Below, piece by piece: positions 6,143 to 29,045 of a stretch of 64,000 nucleotides of DNA. Within the stretch, counting starts at the first letter, position 1; every line of letters begins with the position of its first letter. The translations under genes were made by a program, and so were the position numbers. Under the pieces are notes generated by a model. That model saw only the letters and a program-made list of their open reading frames with translations, searched no databases and was not told the DNA's origin. Source of the stretch: Dehalococcoidia bacterium (GTDB lineage: Bacteria; Chloroflexota; Dehalococcoidia; Lucifugimonadales; SHYT01); assembly GCA_009693045.1 (NCBI GenBank), contig SHXZ01000003.1:53092-117091 (forward strand). Direction: 5' to 3'.

Positions 6143-7030
6143 ATGCCTGACATTTTTGAGTTCGGGTTCATGGTGCGGGCGCTCATCGTCGGCGGCCTCG
6201 TGGGCGTCGTGTGCCCAATCCTGGGGACGTTCCTCGTGCTCCGGCGGCTCTCGCTGATCGCCGACACCCTGGCCCACGTCGCCCTGGCAGGCGCCGCCAT
6301 CGGCTTGATGTTGCATCAGTCGCCGCTGCTGGTGGCCCTGCCCGTCTCCGCGGCGGCCTCGCTGCTCCTGGAGTGGCTGCGGAGCTCCCAGCGGCTGTCG
6401 GGCGACGCGTCGCTCGCCCTGGTGCTGTACTCCGCGTTGGCGGTGGCGGTCATCGTCCTCAGCCTCAGCGTGGGGCTTGGCGCGGGCGTGCTCGGCTACC
6501 TGTTCGGCAACATCGTGACGGCCACTAGGGTAGACGTCTGGGCCATCGCCGTGCTCAGCCTTGGCGCACTGCTCCTCGTGGGGCTGCTCTACACCGAGCT
6601 CGTCCAGTCCACCTTTGACCCCGTGCTCGCCAGGGTGAGCGGCGTGCCGGTCGGACGAGTCAACCTAGTGCTGGCCCTGCTCACCAGCGTCACAGTCACG
6701 CTCTCCATGCGCGTGGTTGGGGCGCTCCTCGTCGGGGCGCTCATCGTCTTCCCCACCCTTGCTGCGCTCCAGGCTGGCCGTGGATTCCGGCTCACCCTGC
6801 TGATCGGGGCTTTCCTCGGCGCCCTGAGCGTGCTCGTCGGGCTGACGGTGTCGTTTTACCAAGACATCGCGCCCGGCGGGGCCATCGTCCTGACCGCGAT
6901 AGCCATCCTCGCCGCAGCCACGCTTGGCAGGCGCGCGGTGGTATACGTGGGCGCCAGGACCGCCACCGCCTCGCGCTCCAAGCCATCAACACCAAGCGCG
7001 GGTGGCGGCGCGTTAAGCCGCGGCGGTTGA
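6143..7030 (+). CDS. metal ABC transporter permease (ZnuB-like)
   Basis: Track ORF of 295 aa, highly hydrophobic and multi-TM, in the operon with the SBP and ATPase genes. Confidence 0.85.
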   Translation: MPDIFEFGFMVRALIVGGLVGVVCPILGTFLVLRRLSLIADTLAHVALAGAAIGLMLHQSPLLVALPVSAAASLLLEWLRSSQRLSGDASLALVLYSALAVAVIVLSLSVGLGAGVLGYLFGNIVTATRVDVWAIAVLSLGALLLVGLLYTELVQSTFDPVLARVSGVPVGRVNLVLALLTSVTVTLSMRVVGALLVGALIVFPTLAALQAGRGFRLTLLIGAFLGALSVLVGLTVSFYQDIAPGGAIVLTAIAILAAATLGRRAVVYVGARTATASRSKPSTPSAGGGALSRGG

Positions 7031-13555: not shown

Positions 13556-13629
13556 TGGCTGGCCCGCCTGGATTCGAACCAGGGTCAGGGGATCCAAAGT
13601 CCCCTGTGCTACCGCTGCACCACGGGCCA
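13556..13629 (-). tRNA. tRNA-Gln (anticodon UUG), CCA encoded
   Basis: The manual fold of the reverse complement is TGGCCCG TG GTGC AGCGGTA GCAC A GGGGA CTTTGGA TCCCC TGAC CCTGG TTCGAAT CCAGG CGGGCCA G CCA. All stems are Watson-Crick. Confidence 0.9.
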
Positions 13630-13669
13630 ACGAAGGTGAACCGTTGGCGAAAAGACCAGCATCAACCGC

Positions 13670-14782
13670 TTATGGGGGGTCGGAGGGCTTGTGCGGAAGC
13701 GACGCCACGCTGCGCCGGACTATGTCCAGGGCTTCGTTGGCAACGGGGTCAACCCCGTAAAGCAAAGCCAGGTAATACGAAACCCAACTACCAAGGTACA
13801 CCATGCCAAGCTGGTGGGCCAGCGGCCCGAGCCCGCGGGCTCCCACTAGCTCGCCGTCGGCCTCCACCTTCTCGCCTGCGACCCCCGCCGACCGAAGCAG
13901 CTCTTCCGTAACAGGCACCCGCTGGCTGAGGGCACTTGGTAAATGTGACGATAGGAGGATAAGGGCATACGCGTTCCGGCTGAGAGTGCTGGGATGGCAA
14001 TAGCCGCTGACCGCGTTGTGCTGGAGCTCGGGCCATGTAGCCGTCACGGCCCACGCTTTGGCGTTCTCGTTGATGTCGTACTGCCAGCGCCGCGCCGCGC
14101 TCGTCAGCAGACCCGCTCCGTAGACTACCGGCACGCGCCCCCACAAACGCCTCGCCAGGGCCTTGGCCGGGTTCTCGGCCTCCGGCGTCGCCAGTCCAAA
14201 GCGAAGGGATTGCTGGTCAATGAGGGAGGCCGCTTCGTCAATCTGTCCGTTCAGGTCTGGCGCATGGCCGGCGGCCTGCAGGACACCGAGGAGCGCGGCC
14301 AGAGCCCCGGCGAGCGAGTGCCTGCCGCCCCATCGGCTCGGGATAGCCACGGGAGCGACGACGCACGCCCCGGCGCGCCTGGCGAGTTCCCCGCCGTTCG
14401 TGATCGGCACCACGCCGGCGCCACACTCGGTCCCGCTCTGGTACGCGGAGAGGGTCTCCGCCGTGTTGCCTGAGTAGCTGCACGCCACAACCAGCGTCTT
14501 CTCGCCCGCCCAGGCGGGAAGGCCGTAGTCGCGCCAGACCGTGAGCGGGCAGGGCACGCCAAGATAGTGGAGCAGGTCGGACGCCATCTCGCCGGCGAGG
14601 CCCGAGGTTCCCATTCCGGCGACGACCACGGACGTCGTGTGACGATACCTGGATGGCAACGAGAGCGACCTCGTCGCCGCCACAGCTTCACGGCACTGGG
14701 CGGCCATCTGGGGGAGGTGGTCCCGCATCCGGGCGGGGTCAAACCGCTCGTAAAGGTCAGGGCAGTCAAGCGAAGGCACCAT
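13670..14782 (-). CDS. bifunctional phosphoglucose/phosphomannose isomerase (SIS domain)
   Basis: Track ORF of 370 aa with SIS-domain sequence (..VVVAGMGTSGLAGE.., ..ACSYSGNTAETL..) and the PGI/PMI-type C-terminal half. Confidence 0.8.
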   Translation of the reverse strand: MVPSLDCPDLYERFDPARMRDHLPQMAAQCREAVAATRSLSLPSRYRHTTSVVVAGMGTSGLAGEMASDLLHYLGVPCPLTVWRDYGLPAWAGEKTLVVACSYSGNTAETLSAYQSGTECGAGVVPITNGGELARRAGACVVAPVAIPSRWGGRHSLAGALAALLGVLQAAGHAPDLNGQIDEAASLIDQQSLRFGLATPEAENPAKALARRLWGRVPVVYGAGLLTSAARRWQYDINENAKAWAVTATWPELQHNAVSGYCHPSTLSRNAYALILLSSHLPSALSQRVPVTEELLRSAGVAGEKVEADGELVGARGLGPLAHQLGMVYLGSWVSYYLALLYGVDPVANEALDIVRRSVASLPHKPSDPP

Positions 14783-14909
14783 AACGCCCCAAGTGTAACA
14801 CGACGGGCGCGGTCGGGACGCTAAACATGAGTGATGAAGGCCGTAGGGCGCTGATCCAGCCCTTTGTGATCATACCGGACAAGTGAACTCATGGCCCTAC
14901 TGGGAGTAA

Positions 14910-14996
14910 TGGTGCCGAAGGAGGGAATCGAACCCACATAGGCTTGTGGCCCAACGGTTTTTGAGACCGTCGCGTCTACCGTTCCGCCACTTCGGC
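14910..14996 (-). tRNA. tRNA-Leu (anticodon CAA), long variable arm, CCA encoded
   Basis: In the reverse complement the acceptor stem is GCCGAAG/CTTCGGC, the anticodon stem ACGGT/ACCGT with loop CTCAAAA, and the T-loop TTCGATT. It has a long variable arm and ends A-CCA. The T stem has one T-T mismatch in my fold. Confidence 0.85.
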
Positions 14997-15026
14997 ACGC
15001 CGATGAAGCTTGCGCGGGAACAAAAA

Positions 15027-15101
15027 TGGAGCGGAAGATGGGGCTCGAACCCACGACCTCCTCCTTGGCAAGGAGGCGTTCTACCACTGAACTACTTCCG
15101 C
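15027..15101 (-). tRNA. tRNA-Gly (anticodon GCC), CCA encoded
   Basis: Reverse complement: GCGGAAG TA GTTC AGTGGTA GAAC G CCTCC TTGCCAA GGAGG AGGTC GTGGG TTCGAGC CCCAT CTTCCGC T CCA. Confidence 0.9.
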
Positions 15102-15514
15102 TCAGCAAAGCTGATTCTATGCGGCGGCGTTGCCGCCGTCAAGGGCGGCGAGGGCAAGGAGCGTCGTGTTCATGCGGCCGCACCGACACGAAGAGTGCCT
15201 GCTGGCCCTAACTGGCGCGCAGCAGGCACTCGACCGTATGTGGCCCTGAGACTCTTCCCCGCTTCGTCTCACCGTCCAGAGGTCTCTAAGGGCCACAGAG
15301 GCTTTCGTTGCTTGTATCGAAACGCAAATAAGACTAAGCTGCCTAGAGTAGGATGGTTGACTGGGTTCATGGGGAGTTCGAGTGTCCTCCTGTCTCCGAA
15401 AATGGTGTTGTTCTATACACACCAAACCGTCGAGCGCATCAATTGGACTAATTTCGATCCCAGCAACGTGTACCAAATAGCCGACCTAATGAGCGTGAAT
15501 CCGGATTTTCTCGA

Positions 15515-15802
15515 TTAGCACTTCGTCCTATCCTCAAACAAAGCCGTATTTTGATCCTGTGGTTTCACAGTTCGCGGCGTGGCGTCAGAAACTGTGTTGG
15601 ATGAAGACTGGCTGGGAGGGCTGAGGTAAGGCTTGCCGTATTGGGTGATGGGCGTTTTCGGTGCCGGAGGTTGCTGAAACTTTTCTGGCGACTGGCATCC
15701 CACAGACACGGCCACGGCTGCAATAATGGCGGCCATGAGCACGGCCATCAAGCTGAACCGCCGAATCCCTTTTAGCCACACGTTGGCACCTCTGCAGAGC
15801 AC
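15515..15802 (-). CDS. small putative lipoprotein (Pro/Ser-rich), in the lower-GC islet
   Basis: Track ORF of 95 aa with a signal/lipobox-like ..LMAVLMAAIIAAVAVSVGC. A GTG at 15781 would give a more typical signal-peptide length. I recognise no family. Confidence 0.4.
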   Translation of the reverse strand: MLCRGANVWLKGIRRFSLMAVLMAAIIAAVAVSVGCQSPEKFQQPPAPKTPITQYGKPYLSPPSQSSSNTVSDATPRTVKPQDQNTALFEDRTKC

Positions 15803-15917
15803 AGATGGGTGCTATGATACTCATTCTTCGGGTGCGGGCCACGGTCGGGGAGAATCGCCAAGCCTTAGTTGCTCGGTGCCCCTACCTCCCACCTTCCCGT
15901 CACGTCGCAAATCTTGA

Positions 15918-16064
15918 TTATGCCTTATGATCCCTGCCACGTAAGATGCCAATGACAACTAGGACGACACCGACAACGATCAAGGCAATTGGGCTATTGG
16001 TACCTCTTAGAACGCATTCGCCAGATATGCCGCCGATAATGAATAGAATGCCGAAGATGACCAA
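15918..16064 (-). CDS. candidate 48-aa two-TM membrane protein (below the track size cutoff)
   Basis: My translation from a TTG start is (M)VIFGILFIIGGISGECVLRGTNSPIALIVVGVVLVVIGILRGRDHKA*. A purine-rich GAAGGGG lies about 7 nt upstream, and an in-frame TGA immediately upstream fixes the start. It is in the same orientation as the lipoprotein ORF and just upstream of it. Confidence 0.35.
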   Translation of the reverse strand: MVIFGILFIIGGISGECVLRGTNSPIALIVVGVVLVVIGILRGRDHKA

Positions 16065-16596
16065 TCAACACCCCTTCACCTCTTGCAACTTCATCCCTCT
16101 GTGGACTTGACCATGTTTGCTTTGGCCGCTTCAAACACTGGCCCCAGAAAACCCTAGCACGTGAAAGTGCAGCACAGAGTATGTGATGGTCACATAATGT
16201 TGGCCGCTGTTACCAATGAGAATTGCCCACGACCTGAAGAACGTCGTAGGGCCACGTAAGGCCGATGAGGCGCTGCGCAAGCTGTTCAAGTTGCCGGTAC
16301 CCCGCCGACCTTCGGCTGAGCCTCCTCGTGGACCATCCTGGCTAATCGCTCCAAGGCCCTTTCGGCTCCTGCCTGTAGCCCGGCAGCGTGGCGTTCCCAT
16401 AGGGGAGCCAGGACTGCTTGGGCCGCCACCACATCGGGCGTTTCCGGCTGGGCCACGCCAACATCGCCGTAACGGCGAACACGTACAGCCACGTGCTACC
16501 AGAACTCCAACGAGAAGCAGTTGGCAAGGTAGGGGCCTTGCTCTTTGGAGCGCCAAACGCTTGAATGGGTCAATTGGTGTCAAATTGGTATCAAAT

Positions 16597-16624
16597 GGCC
16601 CCGGAGGGTATTTCTTCCGGGGCC
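16597..16624 (-). terminator. hairpin downstream of tRNA-Phe, a probable intrinsic terminator
   Basis: The minus strand reads GGCCCCGGA-agaaataccc-TCCGGGGCC followed by ATTTGATACCAATTTGA. It lies 20 nt past the tRNA 3' end. Confidence 0.5.
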
Positions 16625-16643
16625 ATTCCGTGGCTTCATTGCC

Positions 16644-16718
<75 letters not shown>

Positions 16719-23407: not shown

Positions 23408-24784
23408 TTACCCTCGCCACCGCCTCCGCACTGCCACGAACGCCAGCGCCCCGGCCAGCCCAAGCCACATCCCCACGTCCGCCGAGGCCCCCTCCGAGCG
23501 AGAGCACGCGCCGCCGGCGCGGCGCGGCTTGTCGCTCTCCGCGCCGGTTGCACCGGTGGGGCTTGACGCCTGAGGCTGGCTGGTCGTGGCCTGCGGGAAC
23601 TGCAAGGGGGCAGCGGTAACCGTCTGCGCCTTCGGCAGCTCGGTCTTGGTAACGTCTTCAGGCAGCGGCAGGCCGATAGTCTTGCGCCAACGCTGGTCCA
23701 GCCCAAAGCGGTCAAACCCATACGCCTGGGTCAACGCCGAGTCCATCCCTTGGCCAGCCCGAAGGAGCCGAAACAGGGTCCGGAGCTTTTCGGTGCCGCT
23801 GGGCTCGCTCTCAATCAAGTACTCCATCACGCTGCGCCCAAGGCCGTACACCACCATGACGTCCTCAGACTTCCCGGGCATCTGAGTAAGCGACGTCAGG
23901 GGCTTCAGTGTCCCGCGGACAATAGCCAGGGAGAGGTACTGCTCGTAGACCTGGCTTGGCTCCAGGTTGGCGTACTCGGCGAGGCCTTCGTTCATCCAGA
24001 CAGGGATGTTATCGTTGCCGAGTGCGTCGTGGATCAGGAAGTGGGTCATCTCGTGCGAGGCCAGACCGCGCACCTGAGCGTCGTCGGCCAGCAAGAGAAT
24101 GATGCCGAAATCGCTGAACGTAGTGCCCTCCGTGATCAACTCGCCCCGCTGTGTTCTGCTGGTGAGGGGCAGGGCGTTCACCATGTCATTCCAGTTGTTG
24201 TACAACGTGAGCCGGACCGGGCTGACTTGCGTCAAGCCGAACAGCTTCCTACCAACCTTGTCAATCGTGGTGTCCACGGCATCCACAACCGTCTGCGCGC
24301 GGGTCTTCATCGGCCCGTAATAACGAATGGTTATGTCGCCTTGCTTCAGCTCGTGCCAGGTGAAGCGCGAGTCGTCAAAGATGAAACGCTTCGGCTGGGA
24401 GCTGACCACATTTCCGATTGTGTCCTCTACCTCAAAGTAATACTCCATAAGCACGCCCGGTGGTATGTACCGTTTGAGGTCGGAGCCGGTGCGGATGAGC
24501 ACTTCGCTCGTGCCGGTGGAGGCGTCGGGCGCCGGCAGGTAGTCGTACCGCTGCACTCTGCCGCCGACGATGCTGAAGTGCACGGTCACGGTTTTCACAT
24601 CTCCTGGATTGCTGACCCTAACCCGGAAGAGGATGCCGTCGGGGAACTTGCTTTCCGCCTTGGCGTCTTGAACGGTGACGCGCGACGAGTCGGCGGAGAC
24701 GACGCCGTCGGCGCGGAGTCCGAGCGCGAACACCGCCGCCAGAGCAAGGAAAACGACGAGGAGCGTTGACCTGCGCATGGACAT
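23408..24784 (-). CDS. secreted/membrane-anchored peptidase MA-family (HExxH) protein
   Basis: Track ORF 23408..24889. I place the start at Met 24784 (MSMRRSTLLVVFLALAAVFALG, a signal peptide). The zinc motif is HEMTH with a downstream NEGLAEY. A C-terminal hydrophobic helix is followed by RRRWRG. Confidence 0.75.
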   Translation of the reverse strand: MSMRRSTLLVVFLALAAVFALGLRADGVVSADSSRVTVQDAKAESKFPDGILFRVRVSNPGDVKTVTVHFSIVGGRVQRYDYLPAPDASTGTSEVLIRTGSDLKRYIPPGVLMEYYFEVEDTIGNVVSSQPKRFIFDDSRFTWHELKQGDITIRYYGPMKTRAQTVVDAVDTTIDKVGRKLFGLTQVSPVRLTLYNNWNDMVNALPLTSRTQRGELITEGTTFSDFGIILLLADDAQVRGLASHEMTHFLIHDALGNDNIPVWMNEGLAEYANLEPSQVYEQYLSLAIVRGTLKPLTSLTQMPGKSEDVMVVYGLGRSVMEYLIESEPSGTEKLRTLFRLLRAGQGMDSALTQAYGFDRFGLDQRWRKTIGLPLPEDVTKTELPKAQTVTAAPLQFPQATTSQPQASSPTGATGAESDKPRRAGGACSRSEGASADVGMWLGLAGALAFVAVRRRWRG

Positions 24785-24797
24785 CTGTCTCTCTACG

Positions 24798-25562
24798 TTA
24801 TCGCGGCCTGGTGAGCGCCGACGTCGGACCGCCCACCGGCGTCTGCGTATTCGGCACCTTCGCCACCTCAAGCAGGTCCTCTCGGCCAACCGCGGTGAGC
24901 ACTTTCTGGAGGAGCACCTGCTCCGGCACCGCGCCGAGGACTTCCACCGTGTTGTTGATCACGATCTTGGGCACCGCCTGCACCCGGTAGCTCTGCCCCA
25001 GGTACGGGAACTCCTGGACCTCCACCACGTCCGCCCTAATCTGCTCCGTCTCCATCGCCATTGCGTGGGCCATCCTGGCCACACTCGGACAGTGCGGTCA
25101 GGTAGGTGTGACGAACACCTGGACGTGCGCCGGCTTGTCCAGCCTTTTGAGAGCCTTACGCGTGAGCGGCTGGAGCGGATTGACGTTGCGCGAGAGCGCC
25201 ACCATGCCCTCCAGCAACGTCACGAATTCGTAGCCGGACGGGGTGCCGTACAGCTTCATGTTGGAAGCCTTGTGCCCAGCGGTGCTCAGGACGATGCAGG
25301 GGACCCGGTCAACTCCGTGGTCGCGCGCCAATTGCGCCTGGGTGTAGAAGTCGTAGGTCTCCACCTTGATGCGGGGCGACAGGGACGCGACCTCGTTGAC
25401 CAGCTCGTTGACCTGGGGGCAGGTCGGGCACTCGCGTCCGGGGACGACCAGCAAACCGGCGCTCCGTACGGTGAACAGCTTGATCGTGACGTCGCCCTTC
25501 AGGTCCGTCTTGAACCGCGTTTGCAGCGCCCTCTTGTCCTGTTCGGAAAGGAACGGCATCAC
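24798..25562 (-). CDS. two-domain thioredoxin-fold (glutaredoxin-like/PDO-like) protein with in-frame TGA: candidate selenoprotein (CPTC + UPHC)
   Basis: Track ORFs 25098..25562 (..[10 protein letters not shown].. ending ..VQVFVTPT) and 24798..25082 are in the same frame and separated only by TGA at 25098..25100. Read-through gives ..[55 protein letters not shown]... The start overlaps the recA stop. Confidence 0.55.
25065..25100 (-). promoter_or_regulatory. candidate Sec-recoding signal (UGA-C plus downstream stem-loop)
   Basis: mRNA: UGA CCG CAC UGU CCG A-GUGUGGCC-AGGAU-GG(C)CCACGC. That is an 8-bp stem with one bulged C and a 5-nt loop containing GG. The loop begins about 21 nt after the UGA. 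Confidence 0.4.
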
Positions 25563-26653
25563 TCCCCCCTGGACACGCCGTTGGTGCTCGGTGCGAAGGC
25601 GTCTTCTCCGGCGTCGGTATCGGAGGCTGGCGACGCGCCCAACTCGTAGGCGACCGTGGTGGCGCTGCGGATCTCGCGTTCTATCTTGTCGGCGATGTCC
25701 TGATGCGTGCCCAGGAACTCCCGCGAGGCCTCTCTGCCCTGGCCGAGCCTGGTCTCACCGTACGAGTAGAAGGCGCCGTTCTTCTTCAGCAGACCCTGGT
25801 TCACGCCCAGGTCCAGCAGGTCGCCGGTCTTGGAGATCCCCTGGTTAAACATGATGTCAAACTCGGCGGTCCGGAACGGCGGCGCCACCTTGTTCTTGAC
25901 CACCCGCGCCCTTACACGCGCGCCAACCACGTCGTTGCCGTGCTTGACCGCTTCTATGCGCCGGAGGTCCAGCCTCACCGACGCGTAGAACTTGAGGGCG
26001 CGGCCGCCGGACGTGGTCTCCGGGTTGCCGAAGAGCACGCCGATCTTCTCACGGATCTGGTTGATGAAGATCATTGTGGTCTTGGAGCGGCTGATGGAGC
26101 CCGTAAGCTTCCGGAGCGCCTGGGACATGAGCCGCGCCTGGAGCCCCAGATGCATGTCGCCCATGTCGCCCTCAAGCTCCGCCTTGGGCACCAGCGCGGC
26201 CACGCTGTCCAGCACCACCACGTCCACCGCCCCGCTGCGCACCAGGTAGTCGGCGATCTCCAGCGTCTGCTCGGCGTAGTCCGGCTGGGAGATGAGAAGG
26301 TCGTCCACGTTGACGCCCAGCTTGCGCATGTAGGTGGGGTCCAGCGCGTGCTCCACGTCCAGGTAGGCGGCGGTGCCGCCGGTGCGCTGGGCGTTGGCGA
26401 CCACGTGGAGGGCCAGCGTGGTCTTGCCGGAGGCCTCCGCGCCGTAGATTTCTATGACGCGGCCACGGGGCAGGCCGCCCACGCCCAGGGCCAGGTCCAG
26501 CGCCAGCGAGCCGGTGGAGATGACCTCCACGCCGAGCTGCTTGGCGACCTCGCCCATGCGCATGATGGTGCCCTTGCCGTACTGATGCTCCACCTGGGCG
26601 ATGGCGAGATCAAGGGCCTTACGCCGTTCGCCCTGCTGTGAAACCGTGGTCAT
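25559..26653 (-). CDS. recA: recombinase RecA
   Basis: Track ORF 25559..26707. I place the start at Met 26653 ([35 protein letters not shown]..). Walker A is GAEASGKTT, and the sequence is RecA-like throughout. Confidence 0.95.
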
Positions 26654-26967: not shown

Positions 26968-27519
26968 ATGCGTGTCCGGCTACTGTTTCTCCAGGATGTG
27001 CTCCCCCGCTACCGGGCGGGCGAGGTGCGCGAGGTTACGCGCGGCTACGCCCGCAACTACCTCATCCCGCACGGGTTCGCCGTTCCGGCCACCAAGGACC
27101 AGCTCAACCGAATTGAGAAGGTCAAGTCGGTCGCTGCGGAACACAGGAAGGTCGAGTCCGTACGCATGGGCGACCTCGCGGGGCTGCTCCAGGGCGCGTC
27201 CATCACCATCCGCATGCGCTCCGGCGAGGGCGGCAGGCTGTACGGCGCCGTCACCAACATGCTGCTGGCTGAGGAGTTGAAGAAGGCCGTCGGTATTGAC
27301 GTGGACCGCCGCCAGATTGACCTGCGGGAACCCATCCGCGCGATCGGGACGTTCCTGGTGCCGGTGCGTCTGGGCGAGAACCACACCCCAACTATCACCG
27401 TCACGGTGGAGTCCAGCACCCAGTTTGGCCAGGCAGCGACCCCGGTGGCTGCCGCGCCGACCGCAACCGCGGCTGCGGATCAGCCTCAGGACGCGGGTCC
27501 GACCGAGAACGCAACCTAA
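26968..27519 (+). CDS. rplI: 50S ribosomal protein L9
   Basis: MRVRLLFLQDVLPRYRAGEVREVTRGYARNYLIPHGFAVPATK.. is the canonical L9 N-terminus. It has an Ala/Pro-rich C-terminal extension. Confidence 0.9.
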   Translation: MRVRLLFLQDVLPRYRAGEVREVTRGYARNYLIPHGFAVPATKDQLNRIEKVKSVAAEHRKVESVRMGDLAGLLQGASITIRMRSGEGGRLYGAVTNMLLAEELKKAVGIDVDRRQIDLREPIRAIGTFLVPVRLGENHTPTITVTVESSTQFGQAATPVAAAPTATAAADQPQDAGPTENAT

Positions 27520-27653
27520 GGGGCGGGTCGGGGCCCGCCCCCGCAAACGGTGGCCCTGACCAGTCCGGCGCAGAGGCCGACAAAGCACAGGGCCGTCCGC
27601 TGTCGTAGTCCAGGCGCTTCACGAGATGGCGCCTACCGTAGTTCGCTGACGTC

Positions 27654-29045
27654 ATGGCATCTGGGGGGTACCCAATGGTGTACGCAGAGAGGGTGCTGCC
27701 CAACAGCATAGAGGCCGAGGAGGGCGTGATCGGTTCCCTGCTGCTTGACAGCGAGGGGATCATCAAAGTCGCCGAAGTCCTCCGTCCCGCCTACTTCTTT
27801 AACGAGACCACCCGCCGCTGCTACGAGGCGTGCCTTACCATCTTCCAGCGCAGCGGGACCGTTGACCAGCTCACCGTGGCGGACGAGCTTGACCGCCGCG
27901 GCTGGCTCGCGGACGTGGGTGGTCATGCGTATCTCAGTAGCCTCATCGCCGCACTGCCCACGTCGCTGCACGTCGAGGAATACGCCAAGATCGTCTCGCG
28001 CATGGCGCTCCTGCGAGGCCTCATCAATGCCGCCTCGGAGATCGCCGCTCTCGCCTACGAAGGCCCGGTTGACTCTGAGAAGGCCTTGGAGCAGTCCGAA
28101 GCCGTTCTGTATCGCCTCCGCACCGACTACCCCTTCCGCCAGTTCGTCCCACTTCGGGAAGTGCTGGACAAGTTCCTCGCGGACATGTCCAACGCCACGC
28201 TGGCCGGCCCCCTGCAGACGGGCGCCGCGCCCATCCCCACCGGCCTCTCGGACCTGGACCAACTCCTCGGCGGGCTCCAACGCGCCGACCTCGTCATCCT
28301 GGCGGCGCGGCCCAGCGTCGGCAAGAGCGCGCTGGCCGTCAACATCGCGCGCAACGCCGCCGCCCAGGGCGCCGTCGTCGGCTTGTTCAGCCTGGAGATG
28401 GGCAAGGAGCAGATCGCCCACCGCCTGCTGGCCTCGGAGACGGGCATCGACACGCACCGGCTCCGCCTCCACCTGTACAGCCAGGAGGAGGAGCGCCGCC
28501 TCATTGACGCGGTGGGCCGCCTCTCCGACCTCAAGATCTTCATTGACGATACGCCCATGCAGACAATGGTAGGCCTGCGCTCTCGGGCGCGTTTACTCCA
28601 ATTCCAGCACCATGTGGACCTGATGGTGGTGGACTACCTGCAGCTCATCCAGGGGCCGAGCAACCGCCCGGAGAACCGGGTGCAGGAGATCAGCGAGATA
28701 TCGCGCTCGCTCAAGATGCTGGCGCGATGGCTCAACGTGCCGGTGCTGGCGTGCTCCCAGCTCAGCCGCGCCGTGGAGATGCGCACCGGCCACCGCCCGC
28801 AGCTCAGCGACCTGCGTGACAGCGGCTCCATTGAGCAGGACGCGGACGTGGTGATGTTCATCCACCGCGAGGACATGTACATGCAGCAGGAGGAGTGGGA
28901 GCTGCGCAACCCCGACCGGCCGTACCCGAAAGACCTGGCGGAGATCATCGTGGCGAAGCACCGCAACGGGCCGGTGGGCAGCCTGTTCCTCCGCTTCAAC
29001 GGCAAGCTGGCGCGCTTTGAGGACTACTCCGCTGTTACGGAATAA
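27654..29045 (+). CDS. dnaB: replicative DNA helicase DnaB
   Basis: ..LPNSIEAEEGVIGSLLLD.., Walker A AARPSVGKSALA, ..VVDYLQLI.. and ..SQLSRAVE... The start could be the Met at 27675. Confidence 0.95.
   Translation: MASGGYPMVYAERVLPNSIEAEEGVIGSLLLDSEGIIKVAEVLRPAYFFNETTRRCYEACLTIFQRSGTVDQLTVADELDRRGWLADVGGHAYLSSLIAALPTSLHVEEYAKIVSRMALLRGLINAASEIAALAYEGPVDSEKALEQSEAVLYRLRTDYPFRQFVPLREVLDKFLADMSNATLAGPLQTGAAPIPTGLSDLDQLLGGLQRADLVILAARPSVGKSALAVNIARNAAAQGAVVGLFSLEMGKEQIAHRLLASETGIDTHRLRLHLYSQEEERRLIDAVGRLSDLKIFIDDTPMQTMVGLRSRARLLQFQHHVDLMVVDYLQLIQGPSNRPENRVQEISEISRSLKMLARWLNVPVLACSQLSRAVEMRTGHRPQLSDLRDSGSIEQDADVVMFIHREDMYMQQEEWELRNPDRPYPKDLAEIIVAKHRNGPVGSLFLRFNGKLARFEDYSAVTE

Follow-up and report, generated by a model that had tools for sequence, protein, structure and literature searches.

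RESULTS

An oxidoreductase gene interrupted by a single in-frame TGA

Within the window, by which we mean the whole analyzed stretch of 64 000 nt from a Dehalococcoidia MAG, a gene for a PDO-type oxidoreductase is located on the minus strand between recA and a metalloprotease gene. The features of this locus are listed below.

25559..26650, minus strand: recA (PF00154, 446 bits), with its TGA stop at 25561..25559
24798..25559, minus strand: PDO-type oxidoreductase gene, 253 residues with a predicted Sec at residue 154; glutaredoxin-like homologue of the AhpF N-terminal domain
25419..25430, minus strand: CPTC redox motif of the first unit, residues 44–47, opposite CQYC of the Pyrococcus furiosus PDO
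25098..25100, minus strand: in-frame UGA, predicted selenocysteine codon, residue 154, opening a U-P-H-C motif (25100..25089)
25063..25084, minus strand: candidate bacterial SECIS hairpin GUGUGGCC-AGGAU-GGC(C)CACGC, loop at 25076..25072, inside the codons for S-V-A-R-M-A-H-A
23408..24784, minus strand: Peptidase_MA_2 metalloprotease gene (PF13485, 79 bits; HEMTH motif), 13 nt after the stop codon of the oxidoreductase gene

Reading the minus strand from 25559 to 24798 yields one frame of 253 codons, in which the TGA at 25100..25098 is the sole interruption: 153 codons are followed by the UGA and by 99 more, and the frame closes with TAA at 24800..24798. The minus-strand reading agrees with a preliminary description of the sequence, which had noted a frame split by this TGA alone, an ordinary CPTC retained in the first unit (25430..25419) and a C as the base 3′ of the UGA. 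The gene starts with the ATG at 25559..25557 in the context GTGATG, and we prefer this ATG to the GTG one codon upstream because the homologues all begin with MP[ILFV]LS. The GenBank entry comprises the first 153 aa only (MSQ13086.1, EXR47_02895, ‘hypothetical protein’, Dehalococcoidia MAG). By GC3 and codon log-likelihood scans the site ranks first among the in-frame-TGA candidates of the window. The other candidates were dropped, as their translations were Arg/Gly/Ala-rich sequences of off-frame or antisense-looking type.

MAG sequences do contain errors, and the sister sequence from Lake Baikal (L001) carries TGC at this position, which would fit the reading that the TGA is a sequencing or assembly error for TGC or TGT. 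However, the identical TGA is present in the independent Logan assembly of SRR8561391 (L081) and on further ENA and JGI contigs, and the truncated product of 153/154 aa (the same sequence or a cluster of at least 90% identity) is found in seven database entries (NCBI, ENA, JGI, Logan). Because the Logan assembly and these seven entries agree, we conclude that the TGA is no read or assembly artifact. As the same codon also occurs in 42 other species (see below), the chance that it is an error is negligible.

By sequence, the product is a two-unit thioredoxin-fold protein

For database searches we used the fused product with Cys put in place of the TGA. It matches the NCBIfam model TIGR02187.2 (‘PDO_seleno_TRX’, protein disulfide oxidoreductase) with 229.8 bits, above the equivalog cutoff of 185, over residues 6–222 of the protein and positions 2–208 of the 209 profile positions, and Pfam Thioredoxin_3 matches it in two stretches. 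The best solved structures are the PDOs of P. furiosus (1a8l, E = 6.6e-36) and P. horikoshii (1j08), followed by those of Aquifex (2ayt and 2ywm). Residues 4–224 align to 1a8l and 1j08; in both alignments the UGA faces the first Cys of the C-terminal CPYC, while CPTC faces the N-terminal CQYC. Judged by sequence, the end-to-end alignment to the two structures and the two Thioredoxin_3 stretches place two tandem thioredoxin-fold units in one polypeptide, with the UxxC at the helix start of the second unit (U-P-H-C compared to C-P-Y-C of 1a8l). A two-unit glutaredoxin-like or PDO-like protein, with the UGA as the first Cys position of its second CPxC site, is what had originally been proposed for this locus. 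Alignment A1 shows no variation at C44 or C47, and in none of the 64 aligned sequences whose UxxC/CxxC motif opens with UGA or Cys is the second Cys of this motif replaced.

UGA and Cys codons alternate at the same column in related species

We scanned one genome per species and collected 80 Dehalococcoidia/Chloroflexota loci, in 70 of which the site could be located. At the UGA column, 42 of these 70 loci carry TGA, 21 carry TGC or TGT and 7 carry a codon for Asp, Ser or Asn. The in-frame UGA is thus aligned with Cys in homologues and has UGA orthologues in other species, which is the classical Sec/Cys pair that the preliminary description had suspected when it spoke of a Cys-to-Sec replacement in a CxxC motif and asked whether homologues are single genes with Cys or Sec at this column. 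The frame remains open past the TGA for 76–103 codons in 40 of the 42 TGA loci, compared to 69–111 codons in the Cys forms. The two exceptions are L019, which ends at a contig edge, and L057, which reads TGA TAG (L057:6454-6459) where its near-identical relative L059 reads TGA CAG. This TGA TAG could be a second stop after the Sec codon, i.e. a pseudogene, or a base error in the MAG. In the databases, 15 relatives with 56–87% identity end at exactly 153 aa with VFVTP[TG], and full-length Cys homologues are found as well (e.g. P0001 with 72% identity).

The mean column entropy at codon positions 1, 2 and 3 is 0.70, 0.55 and 1.22 downstream of the UGA, compared to 0.80, 0.60 and 1.39 upstream. 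Because the codon-position entropy resembles that of the upstream region, the region past the UGA evolves as coding sequence. This extends to the codons directly after the UGA: the Cys codon three positions after it shows synonymous variation only (TGC/TGT), and the following Pro codon has an invariant CC with a free third base.

These observations bear on the reading that the UGA is a true stop, so that the locus would encode an N-terminal, thioredoxin-like protein of 153 residues and perhaps, as a second product, a C-terminal protein starting at the GTG at 25082 or at a later ATG, either as a split gene or as a decaying pseudogene. Gene callers in four sources annotate the locus in this way, an in-frame GTG lies 6 codons past the UGA, and some truncated product is expected anyway since RF2 termination always competes with Sec insertion. 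However, the five codons from the UGA to this GTG evolve as coding sequence, as seen for the Cys codon (TGC/TGT) and the Pro codon (CCN). Since the codons between the UGA and the nearest restart behave as coding, a split gene with an untranslated gap is excluded. Moreover, a restarted protein would be devoid of the entire active site, and the GTG is not conserved as a start: five sequences have GTC instead, and others have CTG, GCG or ATG. Pseudogenes do not behave in this way either: 42 species retain the stop codon at the column of the catalytic Cys, and the domain after it is intact. Taken together, we regard a true stop at this position as very unlikely.

In a neighbor-joining tree the UGA forms occur throughout, and Cys forms are nested among them several times: L021 beside L018, L035 inside L026/L038, and L001 as the sister of the window sequence. 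This repeated nesting indicates that Sec and Cys have been exchanged repeatedly.

Among the seven remaining loci, the first position of the active site is Asp in L029, L041 and L058, Ser in L039, L074 and L079, and Asn in L062 (around 6430-6460 of each locus). These DxxC, SxxC and NxxC homologues form a SAR202/Dehalococcoidia sub-clade in which the second Cys is kept. The replacement would imply an altered chemistry or a single-Cys mechanism.

A hairpin downstream of the UGA is constrained in UGA forms only

The candidate SECIS hairpin begins 14 nt after the UGA, has a stem of 8 bp with one bulged C and places its apical loop 21 nt after the UGA. It was confirmed at 25084..25063 as an 8-bp stem-loop with one bulge and a GG-containing loop at about 21 nt, just as it had been described beforehand. 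For evaluation we used the bSECIS consensus model of Zhang and Gladyshev 2005, as summarised in PMC13188914 (Figure 2A): a loop of 3–9 nt that has a G within its first two positions and, as a rule, G or U after it, a stem of 4–16 bp, a distance of 16–37 nt from the UGA and a minimum free energy (MFE) of −7.5 kcal/mol or lower. The hairpin of the window agrees with this model in all four respects (AGGAU, 8 bp, 21 nt, −12.1 kcal/mol).

Folded singly, however, it does not exceed chance expectation (z-score −1.23), since 26 of 200 shuffled sequences fold at least as well. We therefore derived the significance of the hairpin from the comparative analysis only. The MFE fold of the window sequence prefers a competing pairing of CGCACU, located just 3′ of the UGA, with AGUGUG. 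This alternative (25080-25096, minus strand) competes with the lower SECIS stem and is not conserved in the relatives. No SECIS-type family of Rfam was found, neither in the window at the gathering threshold nor in 24980..25140 at E-values up to 10; three chance hits were obtained.

For the comparison of Sec and Cys forms the sequences were treated as independent, i.e. phylogeny was left uncorrected. An N-G-[G/U]-N-N loop is present in all 43 UGA forms and in 12 of the 21 Cys forms. When an MFE of −7.5 kcal/mol or lower is required in addition to the NG[G/U] loop, 40 of the 43 UGA forms remain compared to 5 of the 21 Cys forms. The mean hairpin energy is −10.0 kcal/mol in UGA forms and −7.1 kcal/mol in Cys forms (Mann–Whitney p = 1.3e-5, phylogeny uncorrected). 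Of the six core pairs, the five inner ones are kept in 98–100% of the 43 UGA sequences and the outermost in 81%. We further observed compensatory changes: five sequences have C:G instead of G:C at columns 21/33, and L025 has A:U at columns 19/36. RNAalifold recovered the 4-bp GGCC/GGCC core only.

The pairing alone is confounded with coding, because the peptide V-A-R-L-A-H (GUG GCC AGG UUG GCC CAC) is inherently quasi-palindromic in GC-rich codons. Paired cells at the hairpin make up 82% in the UGA forms and 68% in the Cys forms; as the Cys forms pair at such a rate as well, we rejected pair counting as a discriminator and used the contrast in third-position entropy instead. For codons +6 to +11 this entropy is 0.53, 0.00, 0.79, 0.16, 0.84 and 0.79 in the UGA forms, compared to 0.86, 1.56, 1.82, 1.70, 1.51 and 1.00 in the Cys forms. 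Outside the hairpin codons it averages 1.2–1.4 in both groups alike. Because the synonymous sites are near-frozen in the UGA forms alone, codons +6 to +11 are under a constraint at the RNA level that acts only when the UGA is present.

Three Cys forms that stand beside UGA forms in the tree (L017, L021 and L035, each at 6451-6516) carry a full SECIS-like hairpin of −10 to −12 kcal/mol. We interpret these hairpins as probable fossil SECIS elements that have remained after recent conversions of Sec to Cys.

Sec-type SelD genes in relatives and the question of readthrough

Using tblastn with E. coli SelA, SelB and SelD as well as ARAGORN and Rfam, we found no selA, selB, selD or tRNA-Sec within the 64-kb window. 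ARAGORN detected no tRNA-Sec in the window or in 60 related loci. The window contains a loose cluster of four ordinary tRNA genes at 13556-16718 on the minus strand (Gln-TTG, Leu-CAA, Gly-GCC and Phe-GAA), none of them tRNA-Sec. Across the related loci, tblastn with the same three proteins gave convincing SelD matches in two loci only; weaker matches comprised the SelD family in L040 and L016 and a weak GTPase match in L072. The two convincing genes are:

L042:9848-10894, minus strand: SelD gene with an in-frame TGA at the E. coli Cys17 position (SHCAG-U-AAKIS)
L043:9104-10150, minus strand: SelD gene with an in-frame TGA at the same position (SHCAG-U-AAKIS)

Both are located 3–4 kb from a UGA-form PDO gene, and in both a hairpin GGACCU-CGUGC-AGGUCC follows about 20 nt downstream of the TGA. 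Most of the best 120 database relatives of SelD are without about 20–30 N-terminal residues (89–94% query coverage). Such short N-termini are expected if gene callers start after the UGA, and they suggest a systematic mis-annotation of Sec-SelD. A database search with a Dehalococcoidia SelD returned 8000 matches, none of which is on the 194-kb contig of this MAG. In BSepDB, 46 and 49 selenoprotein genes are listed for MAGs of Dehalococcoidia (PMC13326102). Together with the SelD genes of L042 and L043 and the short N-termini of their relatives, these numbers give indirect support for a Sec machinery in the host of this locus.

An UGA followed by C is a weak, leaky termination context. Together with the 64-kb window being free of Sec machinery, this context would also fit a UGA that is read through as something other than Sec, either by near-cognate or suppressor insertion of Cys or Trp or by a reassignment of UGA in this lineage. 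However, UGA elsewhere in the window serves as a normal stop, including that of recA, and the code is therefore not reassigned. The hairpin constraint that is specific to UGA forms fits the published bSECIS model, relatives possess Sec-type SelD genes, and the site is the nucleophilic Cys of a CxxC motif, a typical place for Sec. We thus consider readthrough as an amino acid other than Sec highly improbable.

The recA linkage is confined to one clade

In the window, the recA TGA shares one base with the ATG of the oxidoreductase gene (1-nt overlap). The preliminary description had reported this overlap of the gene start with the recA stop and had proposed co-expression with recA. The overlap stands for the window, but the adjacency is limited to the closest clade and the overlap is absent there: apart from the window, only 11 of the 12 closest species (L002–L012) have recA directly upstream of the PDO gene, with gaps of 1–38 nt and no overlap. 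In L001 recA is located 1.7 kb from the PDO gene, and it is not within 6 kb of it in the remaining loci. The recA–PDO pairing is a lineage-specific synteny, and we rejected it as a general functional coupling.

The Peptidase_MA_2 gene, whose product has a hydrophobic N-terminal stretch resembling a signal peptide, occurs 3′ of the PDO gene and in the same orientation in 22 loci; two further loci have it at a distance of about 3 kb and in the opposite orientation. Its linkage to the PDO gene is broader than that of recA. Between the recA, PDO and peptidase genes we found no promoter-like or terminator-like sites, and a recA–pdo–peptidase operon is plausible in the clade of the window. Divergent from recA, the genes for ribosomal protein L9 and the replicative helicase DnaB are located at 26968-29045 on the plus strand. 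The same L9/DnaB neighborhood is present on the ENA contig bearing the same PDO protein.

DISCUSSION

A selenocysteine codon as the preferred interpretation

We infer that the UGA at residue 154 is genuinely decoded as selenocysteine, and we hold this interpretation with high confidence. The locus would then encode, as a single gene, a cytoplasmic thiol-disulfide oxidoreductase of the PDO type that has two thioredoxin folds and in which selenocysteine takes the place of the attacking Cys at the C-terminal active site, giving U-P-H-C. SelB with Sec-tRNA(Sec) is predicted to bind the hairpin that begins 14 nt past the UGA, with its AGGAU loop at 21 nt, and would thereby deliver Sec to the UGA in competition with RF2. 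The resulting protein of 253 residues may reduce or isomerise disulfides by means of a selenol/thiol redox pair, and some truncated product of 153 residues is probably made too. Most likely, one transcript covers the gene together with recA upstream and Peptidase_MA_2 downstream.

A wider scenario may be drawn, which we offer as speculation that is rather unlikely to hold as a whole. In this scenario, the PDO selenoprotein would be ancestral in Dehalococcoidia and its SECIS element would have been built from the coding sequence of the conserved active-site helix (V-A-R-L-A-H), so that switches from Sec to Cys, Ser or Asp would happen with unusual ease and frequency; one clade would have recruited the gene into a recA operon. 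If true, this recruitment would couple a disulfide reductase that depends on selenium to the response to DNA damage or oxidative stress.

The value of the locus lies mainly in annotation. Truncated calls recur over many Dehalococcoidia and SAR202 MAGs, and an abundant redox enzyme is thus systematically missed. The family also provides a clean contrast of 42 UGA forms and 21 Cys forms of one protein, and it illustrates that a SECIS element overlapping a conserved coding helix is detectable by synonymous-site suppression even where the peptide confounds base pairing. Of modest interest are the SECIS element carved from a helix-coding segment, the repeated exchange of Sec, Cys, Ser and Asp across Dehalococcoidia and the recA link of a single clade. 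Knowledge of Sec decoding and of selenoprotein families is unchanged by this locus.

Comparison with known systems

The archaeal and Aquifex PDOs (1a8l, 1j08, 2ayt and 2ywm) align over nearly their full length (E = 1e-28 to 1e-36) and share with the window protein both CxxC positions as well as the A-x-R-x-A-H helix after the second site. They differ in having Cys at the second site (CPYC), and no Sec form is involved in their source organisms.

Regarding the RNA element, the AGGAU loop fits the N-G-[G/U]-N-N pattern of the E. coli fdhF-type SECIS and the bSECIS consensus, as do the stem (8 bp and one bulge), the distance of 21 nt and the energy of −12.1 kcal/mol. However, the hairpin has no sequence similarity to the E. 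coli fdhF element, and binding of SelB is a prediction here.

The UxxC selenoprotein family of PDO type has been catalogued since 2006 (PMC1794560, PMC13188914). Members were predicted in Carboxydothermus hydrogenoformans (ABB15282.1) and Symbiobacterium thermophilum (Zhang et al. 2006, PMC1794560; review PMC13188914), and a PDO selenoprotein has also been reported in Asgard archaea. The window protein matches the same TIGR02187.2 model and has the same layout of two thioredoxin folds with the UxxC at the second active site; its likeness to the C. hydrogenoformans and S. thermophilum selenoproteins is thus one of common model and layout, rather than of a direct alignment with ABB15282.1. The candidate SECIS element is likewise located directly downstream of the UGA, inside the coding region. 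The differences concern the host, which is a Dehalococcoidia (Chloroflexota) MAG, the U-P-H-C motif, and the flanking recA and Peptidase_MA_2 genes. Taken together, the window protein belongs to a known selenoprotein family, as an ordinary member that has been mis-annotated, and its host to a class known to be rich in selenoproteins.
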